Sequence record: PZ091942.1
Length of the DNA: 64,000 nt
Source of the DNA: a phage
Strand: one strand, 5' to 3'
The notes below the pieces were generated by a model. It saw only the letters and a list, made by a program, of their open reading frames with translations. It did not search any database and was not told where the DNA came from. The translations under genes and the position numbers were made by a program. This document shows positions 3,994-60,618 of this stretch, piece by piece. The first letter of the stretch is position 1. Every line of letters starts with the position of its first letter.

Positions 3994-4069
3994 GCACCCT
4001 TAGCTCAATGGATAGAGCAGCGACCTTCTAAGTCGTTGGTTACAGGTTCGAGTCCTGTAGGGTGCACCA
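3994..4069 (+). tRNA. tRNA-Arg (anticodon UCU)
   Basis: Cloverleaf read by eye: acceptor GCACCCT/AGGGTGC, D-arm GCTC-AATGGATA-GAGC, anticodon stem GCGAC/GTCGT with loop CTTCTAA, T-arm ACAGG-TTCGAGT-CCTGT, encoded CCA. Confidence 0.85.
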
Positions 4070-10834: not shown

Positions 10835-11461
10835 GTGAGCCTGTTAAGAGATTTTCAGCATTATTATTGCGGAACATGGATTGCCCAACGTGCAGAACGA
10901 GGGATTAATCTCCCTCTGTATGTACTCAACGTAAGCCAACCAAGCCGCTTTGGGGAAGATGACTTCTCCCACGAAGCCGAAATGGCCTTGACCTTTGAAG
11001 TTGAACGCTGGTCTAAGAACTCCGAAGGGCAGTTTGAGCGACAAGTTGTTCAGGGTATCCCTGTGTTTGATCAGAGTCTGATTCTGGAATCTCCAGATGT
11101 GGGCTATCTACAACATGGTAACAACATGGTAAGCTGGACTCATATCAACCCTGTTCGTCAGCGAGCTAAAGGTCTGATGGGGAACAAGCTGCGTGGTGCA
11201 CCTCCTTCAATGGGACGTTCAATTCCGGGAGAGCTGGTGTATAACCTGTTCAACCCTGACTTTGAAGGTCTGGTTACTCGCTTCATCTACATTAACCCTG
11301 TTGATGGTAAAGTTTATTACAAAGGGGCGCTTGTAGGTCAAGTTGATCTTTCTGCTGGTTACGGCGACAACGGTCGTCAATCTTTAAATCTTCTGGAGAA
11401 GTTCAAGCATATTTCTTCAGACCTGTCATCATATAATGTAGAGTTGGTGGAAACGTTATGA
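10835..11461 (+). CDS. hypothetical protein (operon member)
   Basis: GTG start after AAGG; ends in ATGA overlap with next gene. Confidence 0.45.
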   Translation: MSLLRDFQHYYCGTWIAQRAERGINLPLYVLNVSQPSRFGEDDFSHEAEMALTFEVERWSKNSEGQFERQVVQGIPVFDQSLILESPDVGYLQHGNNMVSWTHINPVRQRAKGLMGNKLRGAPPSMGRSIPGELVYNLFNPDFEGLVTRFIYINPVDGKVYYKGALVGQVDLSAGYGDNGRQSLNLLEKFKHISSDLSSYNVELVETL

Positions 11462-16392: not shown

Positions 16393-16635
16393 ATGTTGTC
16401 TATCGAAGATTTGATCAGCCGTGGAATGACCGAAGAAAAAGAGCCTCTGATTGTAGGCTCTCGTAAAGCTATTAACCAACTCTGTGAAGAGTTTGGCATC
16501 ACAAACAAGAGAATGATTGGTAATCAGTTCTCTGCAATCATCACCTTCCTCAAACGAGGTGATAAATATTCAATGGAATGTGTTGAGCGTATCATCGCAA
16601 TTGCACAAGAAGATAAGGGAGTAACAACTCTGTGA
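16393..16635 (+). CDS. hypothetical protein
   Basis: 80-aa ORF with ATG after AAAAGGAA. Confidence 0.45.
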   Translation: MLSIEDLISRGMTEEKEPLIVGSRKAINQLCEEFGITNKRMIGNQFSAIITFLKRGDKYSMECVERIIAIAQEDKGVTTL

Positions 16636-23098: not shown

Positions 23099-23122
23099 TT
23101 GGTAGTAGATATGATAACTCTC

Positions 23123-23131
23123 AAATGTATA
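23123..23131 (+). promoter_or_regulatory. AAATGTATA promoter-like motif
   Basis: Near-copy of TAATGTATA motif, 37 nt upstream of ATG 23169. Confidence 0.3.
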
Positions 23132-23168: not shown

Positions 23169-23498
23169 ATGTTAGATTTGAGTAAAGTGGCCCCGCCATC
23201 TGAAGAGATTAGCAAAGCTAAAGTTATGCAGCAGTTCTACCATCGGGATATGCTTGGTCGTTATATCAAGAATCGTGATGTTGTTGCATGGTCTATTGGA
23301 AATCAAGGTTATCTTCTCAAAGTGTTGCAAGTTACTGGCTCAACAGCCAAGCGTGTTAAGGTGTATGACCCTGAAATGGGGCGTTCTAAGTCTGTAGACC
23401 CACAGAACTGCATCGTTATTACCCAGCAAGTAATGGATAATATTGAACGCAATGTAGCGAACTCAACTAACTTAGAGGGAGAATCTCCAAATGCATAA
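23169..23498 (+). CDS. hypothetical protein
   Basis: ATG with AGGAG RBS (track start 23151 lacks RBS). Confidence 0.5.
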   Translation: MLDLSKVAPPSEEISKAKVMQQFYHRDMLGRYIKNRDVVAWSIGNQGYLLKVLQVTGSTAKRVKVYDPEMGRSKSVDPQNCIVITQQVMDNIERNVANSTNLEGESPNA

Positions 23499-24057: not shown

Positions 24058-24078
24058 TCAAACCTCCGCCCTGTCTCT

Positions 24079-24300
24079 TTGTTTAAGAGGTGGGGCGAAC
24101 TTCTTTATAAGGATATGAATATGTTTTCAGCAATCGTATGGTCTGTGTGGGCAATTTTTGTTGGTGGTATCGTTTATCTGGCTCAGAAGCAGATGCTTAA
24201 AGAGAATCCAAATGATGCTAAACCTATTAAACATGGTAGCATTGCTCTGGTAGTTTTCTCTGTTGTCATTCCTTTCCTTCTCCACCTGTTGACTGCATAA
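24079..24300 (+). CDS. small two-TM membrane protein, tandem paralog 1
   Basis: IVWSVWAIFVGGIVYLA ... IALVVFSVVIPFLLHLL; likely start at internal ATG (MNMFSAIVW). Confidence 0.45.
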   Translation: MFKRWGELLYKDMNMFSAIVWSVWAIFVGGIVYLAQKQMLKENPNDAKPIKHGSIALVVFSVVIPFLLHLLTA

Positions 24301-26905: not shown

Positions 26906-27226
26906 ATGATTAATGATAATACATTTAGGACTGGTAACGGAAACGAGATTAGTCCTGCTGAAGTGATTAAACGACACAGAACACAGATGCTTATCCACTC
27001 CTATTTGTATTATTGGTTGGATGACCCAATCTGGTCTGACGATAAGTGGCAACAAGTGGCTGATGACTTAACCACCTTGCAGGAGATGTATCCCGAACCT
27101 ATTGGATTCTTTGATTCAGAGTTTGAAGGATGGAACGGTTCTACTGGTATGCATCTCCCACATGACGAGCGTATTGCTTGTATGGCTACTGAAGTATATC
27201 GTTTACATAAGGACAAATCAATCTGA
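26906..27226 (+). CDS. hypothetical protein
   Basis: 106-aa ORF; HSYLYYWLDDPIWSDDKW region of unknown significance. Confidence 0.45.
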   Translation: MINDNTFRTGNGNEISPAEVIKRHRTQMLIHSYLYYWLDDPIWSDDKWQQVADDLTTLQEMYPEPIGFFDSEFEGWNGSTGMHLPHDERIACMATEVYRLHKDKSI

Positions 27227-27404
27227 AATGTTTTAAATGTGAATCAACTCTTCTCCATTTGAACTCGAAAGTAATACGGGAGCTTGCCAAAGGCTCCCCG
27301 ACTAAAGGGAAGAATAAGAAGTTTGTCGAAATTAAGGTTATAGGTATACATTGTTCAGAGTGTAAATCCTGTAGCTTCTTATATGAAGAACACGGAGGTA
27401 GGAA

Positions 27405-28145
27405 ATGAGTCGTAGAGAATCTCGGAAAGCATCACGGAGAGAATTACGTCGTGAAGCTCTCGTCACCAAGAAAGGAAAGCGGGAATTTGAAGAAGTAGTT
27501 CTTGCTAAGCCGGTAGTACCTCAGAACCAATTCCAGAGTGAGCTACTCAATGCTATCAAGACTAAACAAGTGGTGTTCACAGACGCTCCTGCGGGCTGTG
27601 GTAAGACGTTCGTCATCACCTCTACTGTCATTGATGCACTGAAGAGTGGTAAGATTCAAAAGATTATCATTAGCCGACCCTCTGTTGGCATGGGTAATTC
27701 TCTTGGATTACTTCCGGGCGGGCTTCGTGATAAGTTCGAACCATACCTAATGCCTATTGTTGATGTGATTACTCAGCGATACGGTAAAGGTTTCTATGAA
27801 TGTCAGCTTGGTAATGGGAACATTGAGTTTGTACCTCTGGAATATCTCCGTGGTCGATCTTTCAATGATGCCATTGTTATTGTGGATGAGTTCCAGAATA
27901 CAACCAAAGATGAGGCATTCTCTATCATGACCCGCTTGGGTGAAACATCCCAGCTGTTCTGTATGGGTGACACAAACCAGCACGATATGAAAGGTCGAGA
28001 GAGTGGTCTTACTTGGGCTACCGAGTTTATTGATGAGCACGACCTGTATGAGTTCGCTGATATTGTTGATGGCGACTCAGGTGATATTGTTCGTTCTGGT
28101 TTCTGTAAAGCAATTGTTAAAGCTATGGAAAAGGATGGTAATTAA
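27405..28145 (+). CDS. phoH: PhoH-like ATPase
   Basis: GGAGG RBS; P-loop APAGCGKTF and ISRPSVGMGNSLGLLPGGLRDKFEPYLMP. Confidence 0.8.
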   Translation: MSRRESRKASRRELRREALVTKKGKREFEEVVLAKPVVPQNQFQSELLNAIKTKQVVFTDAPAGCGKTFVITSTVIDALKSGKIQKIIISRPSVGMGNSLGLLPGGLRDKFEPYLMPIVDVITQRYGKGFYECQLGNGNIEFVPLEYLRGRSFNDAIVIVDEFQNTTKDEAFSIMTRLGETSQLFCMGDTNQHDMKGRESGLTWATEFIDEHDLYEFADIVDGDSGDIVRSGFCKAIVKAMEKDGN

Positions 28146-28331: not shown

Positions 28332-28402
28332 GGCTGGCAACTAAAGCCACCCTCTCATAATGTATACTCCTTAGTGTACACTGATATGTTAAGGAGTTGT
28401 AA

Positions 28403-28717
28403 ATGACTGATAAGGCTAAAAGAGATTATGCACAAGAACGAAGAACTGCAATCGCAAGGGGTGAGACCGGCGTTGGTAGCAAGAGCGGAGATGCTCAGCG
28501 CCACCGTGCACGTCGCATCGTTGAAAAGCGCGATGGAAAAGCTGCTGTCCGAGGTAAAGATGTTGGACACAAACGATCAATCAAGTCGGGAGGTTCTAAT
28601 GCGTCAAGTAACTTACGTGTTGAATCAATCTCTGGAAATCGCTCGAACGGCGGCAAAAGTGGAGATCGTGCTGGAAAATCAGCAGGCGGTCGCAAAGGAG
28701 CTTTAAGCTCAAGTTAA
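28403..28717 (+). CDS. basic Gly/Ser/Lys/Arg-rich protein
   Basis: AAGGAG RBS; A/T-biased third positions (unlike overlapping frame 28428-28706); terminator immediately downstream. Confidence 0.45.
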   Translation: MTDKAKRDYAQERRTAIARGETGVGSKSGDAQRHRARRIVEKRDGKAAVRGKDVGHKRSIKSGGSNASSNLRVESISGNRSNGGKSGDRAGKSAGGRKGALSSS

Positions 28718-28722
28718 TATAA

Positions 28723-28756
28723 GGCTACCCATTTCGGGTGGCCTTTTCTTTTATAT
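28723..28756 (+). terminator. rho-independent terminator
   Basis: GGCTACCC-ATTTC-GGGTGGCC hairpin then TTTTCTTTT. Confidence 0.6.
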
Positions 28757-32195: not shown

Positions 32196-32438
32196 GTGAC
32201 TCTAACCTCTAAAGAATTAAAAGAAACTCTGGAAACATCTGAAGGTAAACAACACCTCCTTGCACAGATTCACTCAATGAGTAAAGATACCTTACGTCAG
32301 GCTCTATATGAGCTGACCACTGCTGTTATCCAGATTGAAGCTAACGCTGAAGAAAGTTTGATTAAATTAGAAGCTGCTGATGCAGAAATCAATGGATTGA
32401 AGGTTCGTATTGCCGAGCTGGAAACACAAAATAAATAA
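32196..32438 (+). CDS. coiled-coil hypothetical protein
   Basis: 80-aa helical ORF ending at terminator. Confidence 0.45.
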   Translation: MTLTSKELKETLETSEGKQHLLAQIHSMSKDTLRQALYELTTAVIQIEANAEESLIKLEAADAEINGLKVRIAELETQNK

Positions 32439-32464
32439 GCTACCTTCGGGTGGCTTTTCTTGTC
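32438..32464 (+). terminator. rho-independent terminator
   Basis: AGCTACC-TTCG-GGTGGCT hairpin then TTTCTTG. Confidence 0.6.
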
Positions 32465-33484: not shown

Positions 33485-33627
33485 ACGATATAAAGTCTGG
33501 CTAGACGAAGGAGCTGAGTATCCTGATGGTTCTGGCTGGAAAGTGATTCTGGAAACAGACGACATGGAGGAGGCTGAAACGAAAGCTGAATCCTTCAACT
33601 ACTCATATTATGAGGACACATACGAGA

Positions 33628-34206
33628 ATGGCTGAAGTTTATTTTGCAGGTGATGGTCACCTAGGCCATCGTAACATCTGTAACTTTAGGAAGAAGTTTA
33701 GTAGTATTGAAGAACACGACAAAGCTATCTTAGCAGCGTTTGACCATGTTACTAAACGTGATAAAACTTTCTTTACAGGTGATTGGGTGTTTGAGAAATA
33801 TGCACTTGATATTATCGCTGAAGTAAAAGGAGAGAAGCATCTTGTCTTAGGAAATCATGACAGATTAGAACTTCTCCCTGATATGATGAAAGTCTTTAGA
33901 CACATCAGTGGTGATTATAAGTACAAAGAGTTTTGGGTAACTCATATTCCTATTCACTCTGATGAAATGAGAGGAAAGTATAATATCTATGCTCATACTC
34001 ATAACTCTACTATCAAAGATTGGAGATACTTTTGTACTTCTATGGAACAAATTGATTACAGAGCTGTGTCTCTGCAAGAGATTAGAAAAGAGTTTGATAA
34101 AAGAAAGGAAGATGAACTTAATCTTCTTACTAAACAGAGAGAATCTAATCTTCAGTTTCAGAGAGAAGTTAAGTATACTAATCTAAATCAGTTTATTGAA
34201 TGGTAA
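33628..34206 (+). CDS. calcineurin-like metallophosphoesterase (Ser/Thr phosphatase-like)
   Basis: GDGHLGH, GDWVF, GNHDR, AHTH metal-binding motifs; start at second ATG of track ORF. Confidence 0.65.
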   Translation: MAEVYFAGDGHLGHRNICNFRKKFSSIEEHDKAILAAFDHVTKRDKTFFTGDWVFEKYALDIIAEVKGEKHLVLGNHDRLELLPDMMKVFRHISGDYKYKEFWVTHIPIHSDEMRGKYNIYAHTHNSTIKDWRYFCTSMEQIDYRAVSLQEIRKEFDKRKEDELNLLTKQRESNLQFQREVKYTNLNQFIEW

Positions 34207-34415
34207 GTTAATTAGTTTTCTTTTGATTTTAATAGAGAATCAAAGTCCTAGGAGTCCTCAACCTAAATCAAGGATTTCCTTAATTCTCTATTTTTATCTC
34301 GCAGGTGTCTCCTGCCCTTCCGGTAGTCTCTCAATTTCTAACAAACTTATGAGAGGTGGTTGTCCGCGCCTTATAGTCGTCGGTCCCGTGCAATAGTTTT
34401 ACTAGCTATACCATA

Positions 34416-34424
34416 TATACATTA
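34416..34424 (-). promoter_or_regulatory. TAATGTATA promoter-like motif (minus strand)
   Basis: Exact reverse-complement copy of the motif in the 34207-34554 intergenic region; no ORF start downstream. Confidence 0.25.
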
Positions 34425-34486
34425 CTGTTTGTTATTATCTACTACCAAAAAGGTTATAGTATAATAGAACCTTATCTGTATAGGTG

Positions 34487-34495
34487 TAATGTATA
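34487..34495 (+). promoter_or_regulatory. TAATGTATA promoter-like motif
   Basis: Exact motif 59 nt upstream of SSB ATG; TATAAT at about 34460-34465 nearby. Confidence 0.35.
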
Positions 34496-34554
34496 TAGTA
34501 TACCAACCGCTCAAAGAGAGCAACAATCTTAAATTTATATAAGGAAATATTAAT

Positions 34555-35295
34555 ATGTCTATGATCCCTGAACTGTCTGTATCCCGTAAATCCAACTACG
34601 ATGTAATCCCTGATGGCGAGTACGAAGCACGCATTGTTCGTGTAGTAGGTTTAGGTGTTCACAATCGTGACCCTTGGATTGACCCTAAGACCAAAGCAGT
34701 TACTCCTAAGAACCCAGCTTTCCGTATGGACTTGGCTTTTGAACTGATTGGCGTGGATGCAACAGGGATTGATAATGAAGGCAAACCTCTGGACCCTCGT
34801 CCTGCTTGCCAGTTTAAAACTTTCGATGTAAACCCACGAGCTAAGAATTCTGGTATTCTGAATTTGATTAAAATGATCGACCCAAGTGTTCAAGCACTGA
34901 AAGGTGATTTGGGTTGGTTTAAAGATATGCTGTTAGGTCAGCCTGTTAACATTCTGGTTAACTCCTATGTAAACAAAGCTGGGGAGAAGAAAAATTCTAT
35001 TAAGAGTATTACTCCAATCCCGACCAAGTATCGTGATGCAGTAGGTGCTCCTCGTAGCGACCTTATCTTCTTCGAACCGTATGCTGAGACTGATGCTAAC
35101 TTAACCGCTTATCAAGCTATGTTCCCATTCCAACGTAACCTTCTGACCCAAGCTAATGATGCTAAGAACATTCCTCTGGCTGGTCGTGAAGTTACTCGCG
35201 CTTCTGATACTGAACAGAAAGATGCGACTCCTAGTATCCCTACTATTAATGAAGAGCCGCAGTCTACCTTTGAAGAAGATGATAGCCCTTTCTAA
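34555..35295 (+). CDS. single-stranded DNA-binding protein (putative, acidic C-terminal tail)
   Basis: AAGGAA RBS; C-terminus ...TFEEDDSPF resembles the conserved acidic SSB tail ending in Phe. Confidence 0.55.
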   Translation: MSMIPELSVSRKSNYDVIPDGEYEARIVRVVGLGVHNRDPWIDPKTKAVTPKNPAFRMDLAFELIGVDATGIDNEGKPLDPRPACQFKTFDVNPRAKNSGILNLIKMIDPSVQALKGDLGWFKDMLLGQPVNILVNSYVNKAGEKKNSIKSITPIPTKYRDAVGAPRSDLIFFEPYAETDANLTAYQAMFPFQRNLLTQANDAKNIPLAGREVTRASDTEQKDATPSIPTINEEPQSTFEEDDSPF

Positions 35296-35318: not shown

Positions 35319-35346
35319 AGCCACCTTCGGGTGGCTTTTTTCGTTG
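35319..35346 (+). terminator. rho-independent terminator
   Basis: AGCCACC-TTCG-GGTGGCT perfect hairpin then TTTTTTCGTT. Confidence 0.65.
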
Positions 35347-35847: not shown

Positions 35848-36068
35848 TCAGAGCAGAACTTACAATACCAGAAGGCGTTACTCAGCTTCATGCAGTATGG
35901 GAGTATAACAACCAGATTTGGGGACGAACCTTTAAGTTCTTTGTCGATGGAGATCAATCCTATTGGGCCTATTATGACTCTGAAGAGGATATGTGGATTA
36001 AAGTGAGTGGCATTCAGACAGCCATCCCTTGCCCTGAAACGGCTATGTATTTATTCTGCGTAGTTTAA
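35844..36068 (+). CDS. hypothetical protein
   Basis: ATGA-coupled 74-aa ORF. Confidence 0.45.
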   Translation: MIRAELTIPEGVTQLHAVWEYNNQIWGRTFKFFVDGDQSYWAYYDSEEDMWIKVSGIQTAIPCPETAMYLFCVV

Positions 36069-36092
36069 TGTAAAGTAAGTTAAGGATGACTT

Positions 36093-36743
36093 ATGAAGAA
36101 AAAGACAACACCTACACGCTATCGTATTCATGGCATTCCTATTAAGTATTATCCAACCTTCGATGAATTCTATCGAGAGAACTGGAAAGTTGTGCATAAG
36201 TATTTTATGTATGACATTAAAGATTATCACGAAGCAGAGGATGTTGCTCAGGAAGTGTTACTAAACGCTTGGCGTTTTGTGTTTGCAAAGCAAGAAGAAC
36301 TTCTGCTCACTGATGAAAAAGATATTGAGCACATGACTTATCGTGTCAAGAATATCATCTGGTCGATTCGTTCTAATCGCCAGACAGTTGGAGACCGACG
36401 TATCTACTCTATTCCAGAGGCTGATATGTTTAGACCTCCTGAGATGAATTCATGGGAAAGCCCTTTAGAGATTGCAATGGATAAGCATGACTCTACTGGA
36501 GACCCATTCTTGGAATCTAGAATCTTTTTCTTCTTCCAAGACTTAAGTGATATTATGGATACCAAGAAAATGGCAAGCATGTTCTCTATGCTCTTCCTTG
36601 GAATACCTCATGATCACATCCAGCAGGAGCTGGGAATTTCACACGGAACTTTCTATCGCCGTTATGCAGAGAATCGTGATCTATATGAAGCGGTAGTAGA
36701 GAAGCACTTTGATAAAGAAGATCTTCAAGGGATGATTCAATAA
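36093..36743 (+). CDS. sigma-70/ECF-family sigma factor (putative phage sigma factor)
   Basis: TTAAGGA RBS; region-2-like [13 protein letters not shown] and C-terminal [23 protein letters not shown]. Confidence 0.55.
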
Positions 36744-43698: not shown

Positions 43699-43707
43699 TA
43701 TACATTA
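43699..43707 (-). promoter_or_regulatory. TAATGTATA promoter-like motif (minus strand)
   Basis: Exact motif 36 nt upstream of ATG at 43662. Confidence 0.3.
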
Positions 43708-43727
43708 TAAGAGATAGGACTTAGGTC

Positions 43728-45359
43728 TTACTGAATCATCCAATCAACATTAGAAGACAGAGCACCATTAAGTTTGGGATTAGTTGCTGCACCACCAACA
43801 GCTTCATCAGCTTCTGCATCAAAAGTCTTGTATGGGTCATAGAAACCACCAGAAGGGATACCACGGTTAACCACAGCAGTTGCACGCTTCTTATCCATGC
43901 CAGAACCAATATAAGCATCAATTGTAGCTTTCTTAGATTCCAGAACACCCTTATCAGCGGAAGAAGCACCAACTGTTGCCTGCTTACGAGCATAAGACAG
44001 AGCTGCATCAGAAGGACGATAACCAGCTTTGAGAGACCAAGTGTTACCAGTCTTAACAAAGATTGACGGGTCTTCTGCAAAGTGGGATAAGTCATCTGCT
44101 TGCAGAGAGCGGTTAGCACCAATTTCAGCCCTTGCGGAGTTCATGATAGCCTGCATGTAAGCGGTACGAGCAGATTGATAATCACCATCTTTAATGGCTT
44201 TGTCTGCCAAATCCAAGTCTTTGTGAGACTGTTTAAACAGAGCTGCTTTTTCTGCCCACTGTTTAGCAACAGAGCCTTCAGCAGTATTCTGAACGTTACG
44301 AAGCTCTTTCGTACTGAAGTTGAAGCTCTGAGCAGCTTGTTCTGCACGGTCTGCTTTAACCTGATCACGATAGCCAATAAGCTCTTTCTGTTTAGCAAAC
44401 TGTGCATCGGCACGTTCTTCAGCAGCACGACGAGTTTCAGCAGCACGTTCACGAACCGACTGGTCTTGAATCTGTTGACGTCTATCCCACTCTCGATTAG
44501 CACGAGCTTCATCCTGAGCAGCAAGAGCCATCTTCTCCTGAGGACTAATCTGACGCATCTTCAACATCGAAGGATCACCAGAAGCTATAGCAGCAGCTAC
44601 AGAATCTTGAGAGTAACCTTGTTCAATCAGGTTATCACGGTTCAACTCCAACTGTTGTTTAGCTTCATCCTGAGATGCCATACCAGAACCAATCTGGAAT
44701 GCTTCAATCGGAGACTTACCAGACATAATAGAAAGACCTACACCCATCAAACCAGTATAGAAACTAGAGTTCTGATAGAAAGGTTGTTTCTGCATAGTCT
44801 TCCAAGCTTCTGCTGGATTCTTAGATTGAGCAACTTTAAGAATATCTTGGTTAACTCTTTCTTGGTCAGCAGCACGAGTAGCACCACCCATACCTTCACC
44901 TTGAGGAACTCCAGAAGCGATAGTGTTCATTACACCTTGTGCCTGCTGTACTTGTTCAGGGGCAAACTCTTTATCTGACTCTTCAATCGGTTTAGCAGGA
45001 GCAGTAACCGGAAGAGGACTAGAAGCAGGAGCTGCATCAGGAGGAATCATAGAACCTTCATCACCCGGATTAATACCAGCATCAACACCAGCCAAACTAG
45101 CAGGAGCAGTGACACCTTGTTGTTCATACAGACGTTGCTTGAATCCTGGATTAACCATAGCTTGCTGGTCAGCCTGAGCTTGTTGTACTTGTTCTTCTAA
45201 ACTAGCCGGTACAGCAGGACGCTGATACATAGAAAGGTCAGCAGCTGGGCCAGCAGGTCTAGACATGTAAGGAGAGGCCGTAACCCCTCTCTGACGATCA
45301 CCATAAATCTGATTTCGCGGGTCTTGACTACGAAGATACGCGTAAGATGTTTGTTGCAT
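43728..45359 (-). CDS. virion protein (hypothetical, 543 aa)
   Basis: AGGAG RBS; Pro/Ala/Gln-rich N-terminus then helical charged region. Confidence 0.55.
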   Translation of the reverse strand: MQQTSYAYLRSQDPRNQIYGDRQRGVTASPYMSRPAGPAADLSMYQRPAVPASLEEQVQQAQADQQAMVNPGFKQRLYEQQGVTAPASLAGVDAGINPGDEGSMIPPDAAPASSPLPVTAPAKPIEESDKEFAPEQVQQAQGVMNTIASGVPQGEGMGGATRAADQERVNQDILKVAQSKNPAEAWKTMQKQPFYQNSSFYTGLMGVGLSIMSGKSPIEAFQIGSGMASQDEAKQQLELNRDNLIEQGYSQDSVAAAIASGDPSMLKMRQISPQEKMALAAQDEARANREWDRRQQIQDQSVRERAAETRRAAEERADAQFAKQKELIGYRDQVKADRAEQAAQSFNFSTKELRNVQNTAEGSVAKQWAEKAALFKQSHKDLDLADKAIKDGDYQSARTAYMQAIMNSARAEIGANRSLQADDLSHFAEDPSIFVKTGNTWSLKAGYRPSDAALSYARKQATVGASSADKGVLESKKATIDAYIGSGMDKKRATAVVNRGIPSGGFYDPYKTFDAEADEAVGGAATNPKLNGALSSNVDWMIQ

Positions 45360-54885: not shown

Positions 54886-54949
54886 TTGAGTGTCTCCTAT
54901 AAATTAACCTCTTGGGATATATTAGTTTCATTACCTATTCACTAGTTTA

Positions 54950-60524: not shown

Positions 60525-60588
60525 AATTGTGTCCTCCTAGTTGTGTATAGACAAAGAGAATACATTACACTTGGTCCTGTATAGGTCT

Positions 60589-60618
60589 TAAAACAAGAAA
60601 AGCCACCCGAAGGCAGCT
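60589..60618 (-). terminator. rho-independent terminator
   Basis: Minus strand AGCUGCC-UUCG-GGUGGCU then UUUUCUUGUUUU after collagen-like gene. Confidence 0.65.

Follow-up and report, generated by a model that had tools for sequence, protein, structure and literature searches.

A gp36-type promoter element at six sites of a phiEco32-like phage and a candidate divergent promoter for a conserved structured RNA

The 9-nt motif TAATGTATA, which recurs on both strands of the 64,000-nt stretch of phage DNA analysed here (sequence record PZ091942.1; hereafter the window), is very probably the core of a promoter type read by RNA polymerase carrying a phage sigma factor of the phiEco32 gp36 type. Judged from the sequence and its relatives, the window holds six such sites (Table 1), and one of them, the minus-strand copy at 34416 (P_anti), would be a seventh promoter in addition to the six described for phiEco32, directing synthesis of a structured RNA. 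A preliminary description of this DNA had noticed the motif upstream of genes on both strands and taken it for a phage-specific promoter element; the observation is confirmed and the interpretation as a phage sigma promoter element is supported. The kind of element and five of the sites are already known from the literature. As a mark of the change from host sigma70 to phage-sigma transcription, the motif can serve to annotate middle and late operons in Kuravirus- and Suseptimavirus-like genomes.

Pieces of the window of 5 kb and 25 kb gave matches in 99 phage records, every one of which belongs to a phiEco32-like coliphage of the Gordonclarkvirinae (Kuravirus and Suseptimavirus), with ECBP2 as the best match (~96% identity across 95% of the 25 kb); identity of the window to ECBP2, TH42 and Bas88 was 92-96%. 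Its place is clearly in the phiEco32 subgroup, outside the 7-11 subgroup. In a BLAST comparison the window was collinear with positions 7.1-69.6 kb of phiEco32 in reversed orientation, so that its plus-strand genes up to ~39.1 kb correspond to the early and middle genes and its minus-strand genes from 39.2 kb on to the late virion genes. A tRNA-Arg gene (anticodon TCT) lies at 3994-4069(+) in the early region, where phiEco32 likewise has an annotated tRNA-Arg gene. The characterization of the genome as AT-rich in the preliminary description was overstated, the G+C content being 39-47%.

The promoter element and its predicted reader

In the passages of PMC8948821 that quote Pavlova et al. 2012, six phiEco32 promoters are given for RNA polymerase carrying the phage sigma factor gp36 (P6, P13, P26, P40, P58 and P68), and the same paper with its Table S3 places the late promoters upstream of genes 6, 13 and 26 and the middle promoters upstream of genes 40, 58 and 68. 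The sequence tAATGTAtA is reported as their single conserved element, with transcription starting 6-8 nt downstream (PMC8948821, PMC4281155, PMC4331800, PMC12276001), and corresponding elements have been tabulated for NJ01, ECBP2, KBNP1711, SU10 and 172-1 (PMC8948821 text and Table S3; PMC4281155; PMC4331800). The phage protein gp79 inhibits sigma70 transcription and co-activates gp36 transcription; P26 was activated 4-fold by gp79 in vitro (PMC12276001). A 2025 cryo-EM study resolved the core-gp36-gp79-P68 open complex, with AATGTA centred at −11.5; gp36 touches −14A, −13A, −12T and −11G through its N-terminal domain and −37G and −34A through its C-terminal domain (PMC12276001).

Exact copies of TAATGTATA occur four times in the window, at 28358(+), 34416(−), 34487(+) and 43699(−), against an expectation of 0.55, and none of 100 shuffled sequences reached four; the relaxed form WAATGTATA occurs five times against 1.39 expected. 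The motif is thus more frequent than chance would give, which the preliminary description had named as one point on which its proposal could fail. All four exact copies are intergenic, intergenic DNA making up ~10% of the window by a crude ORF model (coding fraction 0.90). The sites previously recorded, namely TAATGTATA at 34487-34495(+), 34416-34424(−) and 43699-43707(−) and AAATGTATA at 23123-23131(+), are all real and correctly placed, but the set numbers six in the window, 28358(+) and 60559(−) having been overlooked. A scan of phiEco32 combined with alignment of the flanks put five of the window sites in one-to-one correspondence with P68, P58, P40, P26 and P13, the position of P6 falling outside the window. 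The preliminary description had likened the motif to that of sigma-dependent promoters of phiEco32-like phages, in agreement with the published consensus, and these five sites are syntenic with published promoters.

Table 1. Promoter sites, regulator genes and predicted RNA elements in the window (+1 positions are predicted).
Feature	Coordinates	Strand	Details
P68 homologue (middle)	23101-23131	+	GGTAGTAG at −37 to −30, AAATGTATA at −15 to −7; predicted +1 A23138; ATG 23169; syntenic with phiEco32 46862(−)
P58 homologue (middle)	28358-28366	+	exact TAATGTATA; predicted +1 A28373; ATG 28403
P40 homologue (middle)	34487-34495	+	exact TAATGTATA; predicted +1 A34502; ATG 34555, 59 nt on
P26 homologue (late)	43699-43729	−	AAGACCTA at −37 to −30, TAATGTATA; predicted +1 G43692; ATG of 1472-aa gene 36 nt downstream
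P13 homologue (late)	60559-60589	−	AAGACCTA at −37 to −30, TAATGTATT (one mismatch) at 60559-60567; predicted +1 G60552; ATG 60524, 34 nt on
P_anti, divergent gp36-type candidate promoter	34416-34446	−	GGTAGTAG at −37 to −30, TAATGTATA at −15 to −7
Phage sigma factor, gp36 orthologue	36093-36743	+	81% identity to gp36; PDB 9m7y_F, E = 2e-119
gp79 orthologue	16393-16635	+	77.5% identity; PDB 9m7y_G, E = 5e-38
gp40 orthologue, first gene after P40 homologue	34555-35295	+	probable OB-fold ssDNA-binding protein
5′-terminal hairpin AUAGCU-AGUAA-AACUAU	34393-34409	−	first base = predicted +1 A34409; covariation
Variable middle module	34322-34392	−	alternative long and short versions in relatives, each with hairpins
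Nearly invariant non-coding block	34231-34321	−	large hairpin 34231-34292; GCAGG-N5-CCUGC hairpin 34302-34315

With the motif set at −15 to −7, the predicted +1, which is the seventh nucleotide after the motif, is a purine in all six sites, and AATG as well as −34A are likewise present in six of six; position −37 is G only in the P68 and P58 homologues and P_anti, A in the late sites and T in the P40 homologue. The distance from the motif to the start codon had been described as fixed at 36-37 nt on the basis of 43699 (36 nt) and 23123 (37 nt, counted to the RBS-preceded ATG at 23169). Both values are correct and 28358 provides a third site at 36 nt, but the spacings of 34 nt and 59 nt at the remaining gene-proximal sites make the distance similar rather than fixed.

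The product of 36093-36743, which the preliminary description had named as the possible reader of the motif, turned out to be the gp36 orthologue (Table 1). It has a weak Sigma70_r2 match in Pfam, and all published DNA-contact residues of gp36 are unchanged in it (E79, H80, Y83, R84, W90, S91, S94, N95, Y186 and R187). Owing to this close homology, the published mechanism can be applied to the five homologous sites. TAATGTATA would then act as the −10-like core (−15 to −7) for the E. coli RNA polymerase core associated with this sigma factor, assisted by the gp79 orthologue. By homology with the phiEco32 open complex, the sigma factor is expected to read −14A, −13A and −12T in duplex DNA and to melt the duplex at −11G with its N-terminal domain, and to make contact at −37 and −34 in the −35 region with its C-terminal domain; transcription would start at the purine 7 nt past the motif. 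The five homologues are predicted to switch on replication, nucleotide-metabolism and virion genes in this way after gp79 has shut off sigma70.

The TATA-like sequence inside the motif could also be thought to represent a host sigma70 AT-rich −10 element or a chance word in AT-rich intergenic DNA, and the SU10 genome paper suggests that the sigma70 holoenzyme may also read middle genes (PMC4281155). We give this explanation scarcely any weight: beyond the failure of every shuffle to reach the observed motif count, composite patterns joining the motif to an upstream box were found exactly twice each in the window against 0.00 expected, both for GGTAGTAG-N14-WAATGTATA and for the corresponding −35/−10 pattern with AAGACCTA, a sigma70 scan was not enriched at the region, and published in vitro data on the orthologous promoters contradict it.

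The gp36 promoters of phiEco32 and those of the window are alike in the 9-nt element, in five positions, in the sigma contact residues, in gp79 and in the predicted purine start 7 nt on. They differ from the published six in that the P13 homologue of the window reads TAATGTATT, and in that 34416(−), or 36704(+) in phiEco32, is unlisted, antisense and has no downstream ORF. Among better-known systems, the T4 late promoters (TATAAATA) are served by gp55, a minimal phage sigma factor that recognizes an extended −10-like element with the help of an RNA polymerase-bound co-activator. The gp36 system shares with it the phage sigma factor, the single extended −10-like element and the co-activator, but the proteins are unrelated in sequence, the motif is another one, the −35 region is contacted by the gp36 C-terminal domain, and there are conserved upstream boxes. 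The gp47 late promoters of Salmonella phage 7-11 are similar in depending on a divergent phage sigma factor, in the phiEco32-like layout and in their genome positions, but they are bipartite (GTAAtg-N16-aCTA), their sigma factor is ~15% identical to gp36, and gp79 is missing from that phage (PMC8948821).

The divergent site in the gene-40 spacer

The spacer upstream of gene 40, which contains the P40 homologue on the plus strand and P_anti on the minus strand, was aligned across 19 phages, whose identity here ranges over 72-98%. The motif of the P40 homologue is invariant in these relatives. So is the −10 block of P_anti, TATATACATTA (reverse complement of TAATGTATATA), and its −35 block, ATCTACTACC (reverse complement of GGTAGTAGAT), is invariant but for one position, the nucleotides between the two blocks varying freely. 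At the level of conservation, two fixed blocks separated by a variable spacer are what a bipartite promoter should show. Furthermore, the upstream block is identical at 13 of 13 positions to the P68 box TTGGTAGTAGATA and lies at an equal distance from the motif, both in the window and at the phiEco32 counterpart, and it supplies both bases that gp36 touches upstream in the P68 structure, −37G and −34A.

Outside these 19 phages, relatives whose gp40 is 71-74% identical keep the architecture of P_anti although the sequence has changed: GGTAGT, ~13 nt, TAATGAATA, a 6-nt gap and a hairpin. Where gp40 identity is as low as ~64%, the whole module of P_anti and RNA is missing.

A different reading is that 34416(−) is no promoter, and that the 11-bp inverted repeat it forms with 34487(+) (TATATACATTA ... 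TAATGTATATA), or the adjoining block, acts as DNA, possibly as a site for a dimeric regulator, as iterons (AGTCC(C)T twice) or as an origin beside the SSB-like gene. The two copies are indeed inverted and both invariant, the location is between replication-related genes, and the block 34231-34321 is near-invariant and does not covary, with the copies of its direct repeat changing together (CC to CCC) between lineages. The divergent site is also missing from the published promoter lists as given in PMC8948821, PMC4281155 and PMC4331800; the original article of Pavlova et al. 2012 may mention the site or have found it inactive. The published searches looked upstream of genes and in the direction of the genes, and no ORF lies downstream of P_anti. 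What an action at the DNA level leaves unexplained is the P68-identical 13-nt box at −39 to −27, which is present on the minus strand only, as well as the variable spacer and a covarying hairpin whose first base coincides with the predicted +1 in each of two divergent lineages. In the distant lineage, moreover, the copies differ (TAATGAATA versus TAATGTATT) and the inverted-repeat symmetry is therefore lost. We regard a purely DNA-level function as distinctly improbable, and P_anti appears to be a promoter that depends on gp36 but is not listed, one that would start a structured RNA at the predicted +1.

Structure and strand of the predicted RNA

The minus-strand transcript predicted from P_anti would begin with a 6-bp hairpin whose first base is the predicted +1 (Table 1). 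The stem of the window copy contains one C/A mismatch. Over nine distinct sequence variants of this hairpin, 94% of cells were paired versus 74% in shuffles, with none of 500 shuffles as good and slid controls at 54% at most, and compensatory changes were seen in 4 of the 6 pairs; in one variant a G-C pair changes to G-U, which is valid on the minus strand only. In the relatives with 71-74% identical gp40, the hairpin is ACAUC-AAAC-GAUGU, again starting from the predicted +1, and is followed by a conserved UGCA. Since such a hairpin is strand-symmetric, covariation alone cannot pick the strand, and the minus strand is favoured only by G-U pairs and folding energies. The block 34231-34321 is without covariation because it does not vary, and it may therefore have a role as DNA, improbable as we think this is. 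Relatives show indels of 1-3 nt in this block and no conserved ORF, both of which speak against its being coding. A scan of 33500-35000 against Rfam 15 gave best scores of 12-22 bits, which are snoRNA-type noise compared with gathering scores of 37-60, and a tRNA scan of the window found no tRNA in the structured region.

The structured stretch 34207-34400 might instead belong to the plus strand, as the terminator or 3′-UTR of the upstream middle operon or as a 3′-UTR-derived RNA, with P_anti serving for interference or insulation. The block sits between the stop codon at 34204-34206 and the P40 homologue, directly next to both, where a terminator would not be surprising, and TTTTTAT follows the large hairpin on the plus strand. 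A terminator scan, however, found no plus-strand terminator in 34207-34400, and the block is unlike the compact G+C-rich hairpins with T-runs that are among the plus-strand terminator-like sites elsewhere in the region (for example 35319-35336, 28721-28745 and 32437-32456). Compared with shuffles, the minus-strand fold had z = −3.26, whereas the plus-strand fold was no better than shuffled sequences (z = −1.52, 14 of 200 as good), and the minus-strand fold was the more stable in all four phages tested. The large stem contains two invariant G-U pairs, with a third in one sequence, and these become A-C mismatches on the plus strand. Near-invariance over ~90 nt also exceeds what a terminator needs. 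Assignment to the plus strand is thus unlikely in our judgement, and the structured stretch is treated below as the transcript predicted from P_anti.

No minus-strand intrinsic terminator was found after the conserved block before 34077-34056. The RNA would be roughly 185-200 nt long, with an approximate 3′ end, and consist of the 5′ hairpin, the variable middle and an invariant 3′ domain. It is antisense to the 3′-UTR of upstream middle-gene transcripts, and whether it also overlaps the gene ending at 34206 hinges on the 3′ end. By its position, the RNA could be read as a cis-antisense RNA directed at the 3′ end of middle transcripts from upstream; other candidate roles are origin priming, transcription-coupled insulation and a protein-binding RNA. 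The OOP RNA of phage lambda, a 77-nt product of the host sigma70 holoenzyme, has an intrinsic terminator at its end. As a counterpart, the P_anti RNA would resemble it as a small RNA from a promoter directed against an operon that overlaps or abuts the 3′ end of the operon transcript, but would differ in its length of ~190 nt, in its synthesis by the phage sigma holoenzyme and in lacking a minus-strand terminator; it may or may not overlap the upstream coding sequence.

Two further roles were considered. For a target in trans, RNA duplex folding against the translation-initiation regions of all genes gave a best value of −44.0, within the range of shuffled RNAs (mean −39.3, best −46.0), and so yielded no evidence of a target. 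As for a CsrA sponge, GGA occurs 7 times in the window copy against 3.4 expected (P = 0.02), but this enrichment is missing in phiEco32 (P = 0.35), for which reason the idea was dropped. On the plus strand, the block contains a direct repeat, AGTCCT twice at 34246-34260, which reads AGTCCCT twice in most relatives, both copies differing alike; the repeat could be involved in pairing or form a protein-binding site with two half-sites. Three independent public metagenome assemblies break 35-205 nt upstream of the start codon of the gp40 homologue; the gene-40 spacer may be difficult for assemblers, and the duplicated promoter box or strong structure could be the cause.

If P_anti is real, a phage sigma holoenzyme would be making a conserved non-coding RNA of the phage. 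With a holoenzyme structure, the gp79 activator and in vitro assays already at hand in this system, both the synthesis and the role of the RNA are directly testable. The broadest form of the proposal is that all phages of the phiEco32 subgroup carry an unreported seventh, P68-like gp36 promoter for a conserved structured non-coding RNA of ~190 nt opposite the middle genes, and that the classes of upstream boxes could underlie middle and late timing; as a whole, we give it an even chance.

Upstream boxes, other motif matches and downstream genes

The upstream boxes fall into two classes. AAGACCTA lies at −37 to −30 in the homologues of P26 and P13 (43722-43729(−) and 60582-60589(−)), and GGTAGTAG lies at the same position in the P68 homologue and P_anti (23101-23108(+) and 34439-34446(−)); the same holds for phiEco32. 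Because these boxes recur, the description of these promoters as having a single element is incomplete, which fits the contacts that cryo-EM showed in the −35 region. The difference between the boxes, as a pattern in the sequences, may relate to middle versus late timing, and it offers a concrete hypothesis of how one sigma factor could serve two temporal classes. In a scan of IMG/VR with GGTAGTAG-N14-WAATGTATA, two matches were found in each of four phiEco32-like genomes and one in a fifth; the other matches were in unrelated contigs and were taken as chance. The TAATGTATA elements are not among the promoters annotated in 4E8 and SU7.

Several further motif-like sequences in the window were rejected as promoters. 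TAATGTAAA at 36066-36074(+) lies 18 nt ahead of the sigma gene and overlaps the stop codon of the ORF before it; it is shared only by ECBP2 and absent in phiEco32, and there is therefore probably no conserved autoregulatory promoter. TAATGTAGA at 11434 is within coding sequence and just 15 nt before an ATG, with no motif at the matching position of phiEco32, and TAATTTATA at 54898(−) is without the essential −11G. CAATGTATA at 27345-27353(−) is in a stretch without alignment to phiEco32. This last sequence sits in the gap 27227-27404 between the ORFs 26906-27226 and 27405-28145; no ORF of at least 60 aa is listed in the gap, and the alignment to phiEco32 is lost from ~27318.

The gene starting at 34555, the first after the P40 homologue, had been labelled SSB. 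The label is plausible but weakly supported. The product has no Pfam match and belongs to a PHROG family of no known function. An AF2 model of it (pLDDT 82.7) gave a Foldseek list made up mostly of OB-fold SSB, PriB and RPA chains, of which one matched at E <= 0.001 and the TM-scores were low (0.09-0.27). Its C-terminus is EEDDSPF, within a family consensus of DDDxPF, a tail that we take to resemble the acidic tip of bacterial SSB. From the model and this tail, the protein is probably a phage SSB.

Terminator-like sequences follow the first genes of two middle promoters. The P58 homologue is followed by the gene 28403-28717 and then by a G+C-rich terminator-like hairpin with a T-run at 28721-28745(+), and the P40 homologue by the SSB-like gene and then by a compact terminator-like hairpin with a T-run at 35319-35336(+). 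Behind the P68 homologue, a similar terminator-like hairpin follows the second gene, at 24067-24097(+). The arrangement suggests promoter-gene-terminator cassettes for highly expressed first genes.
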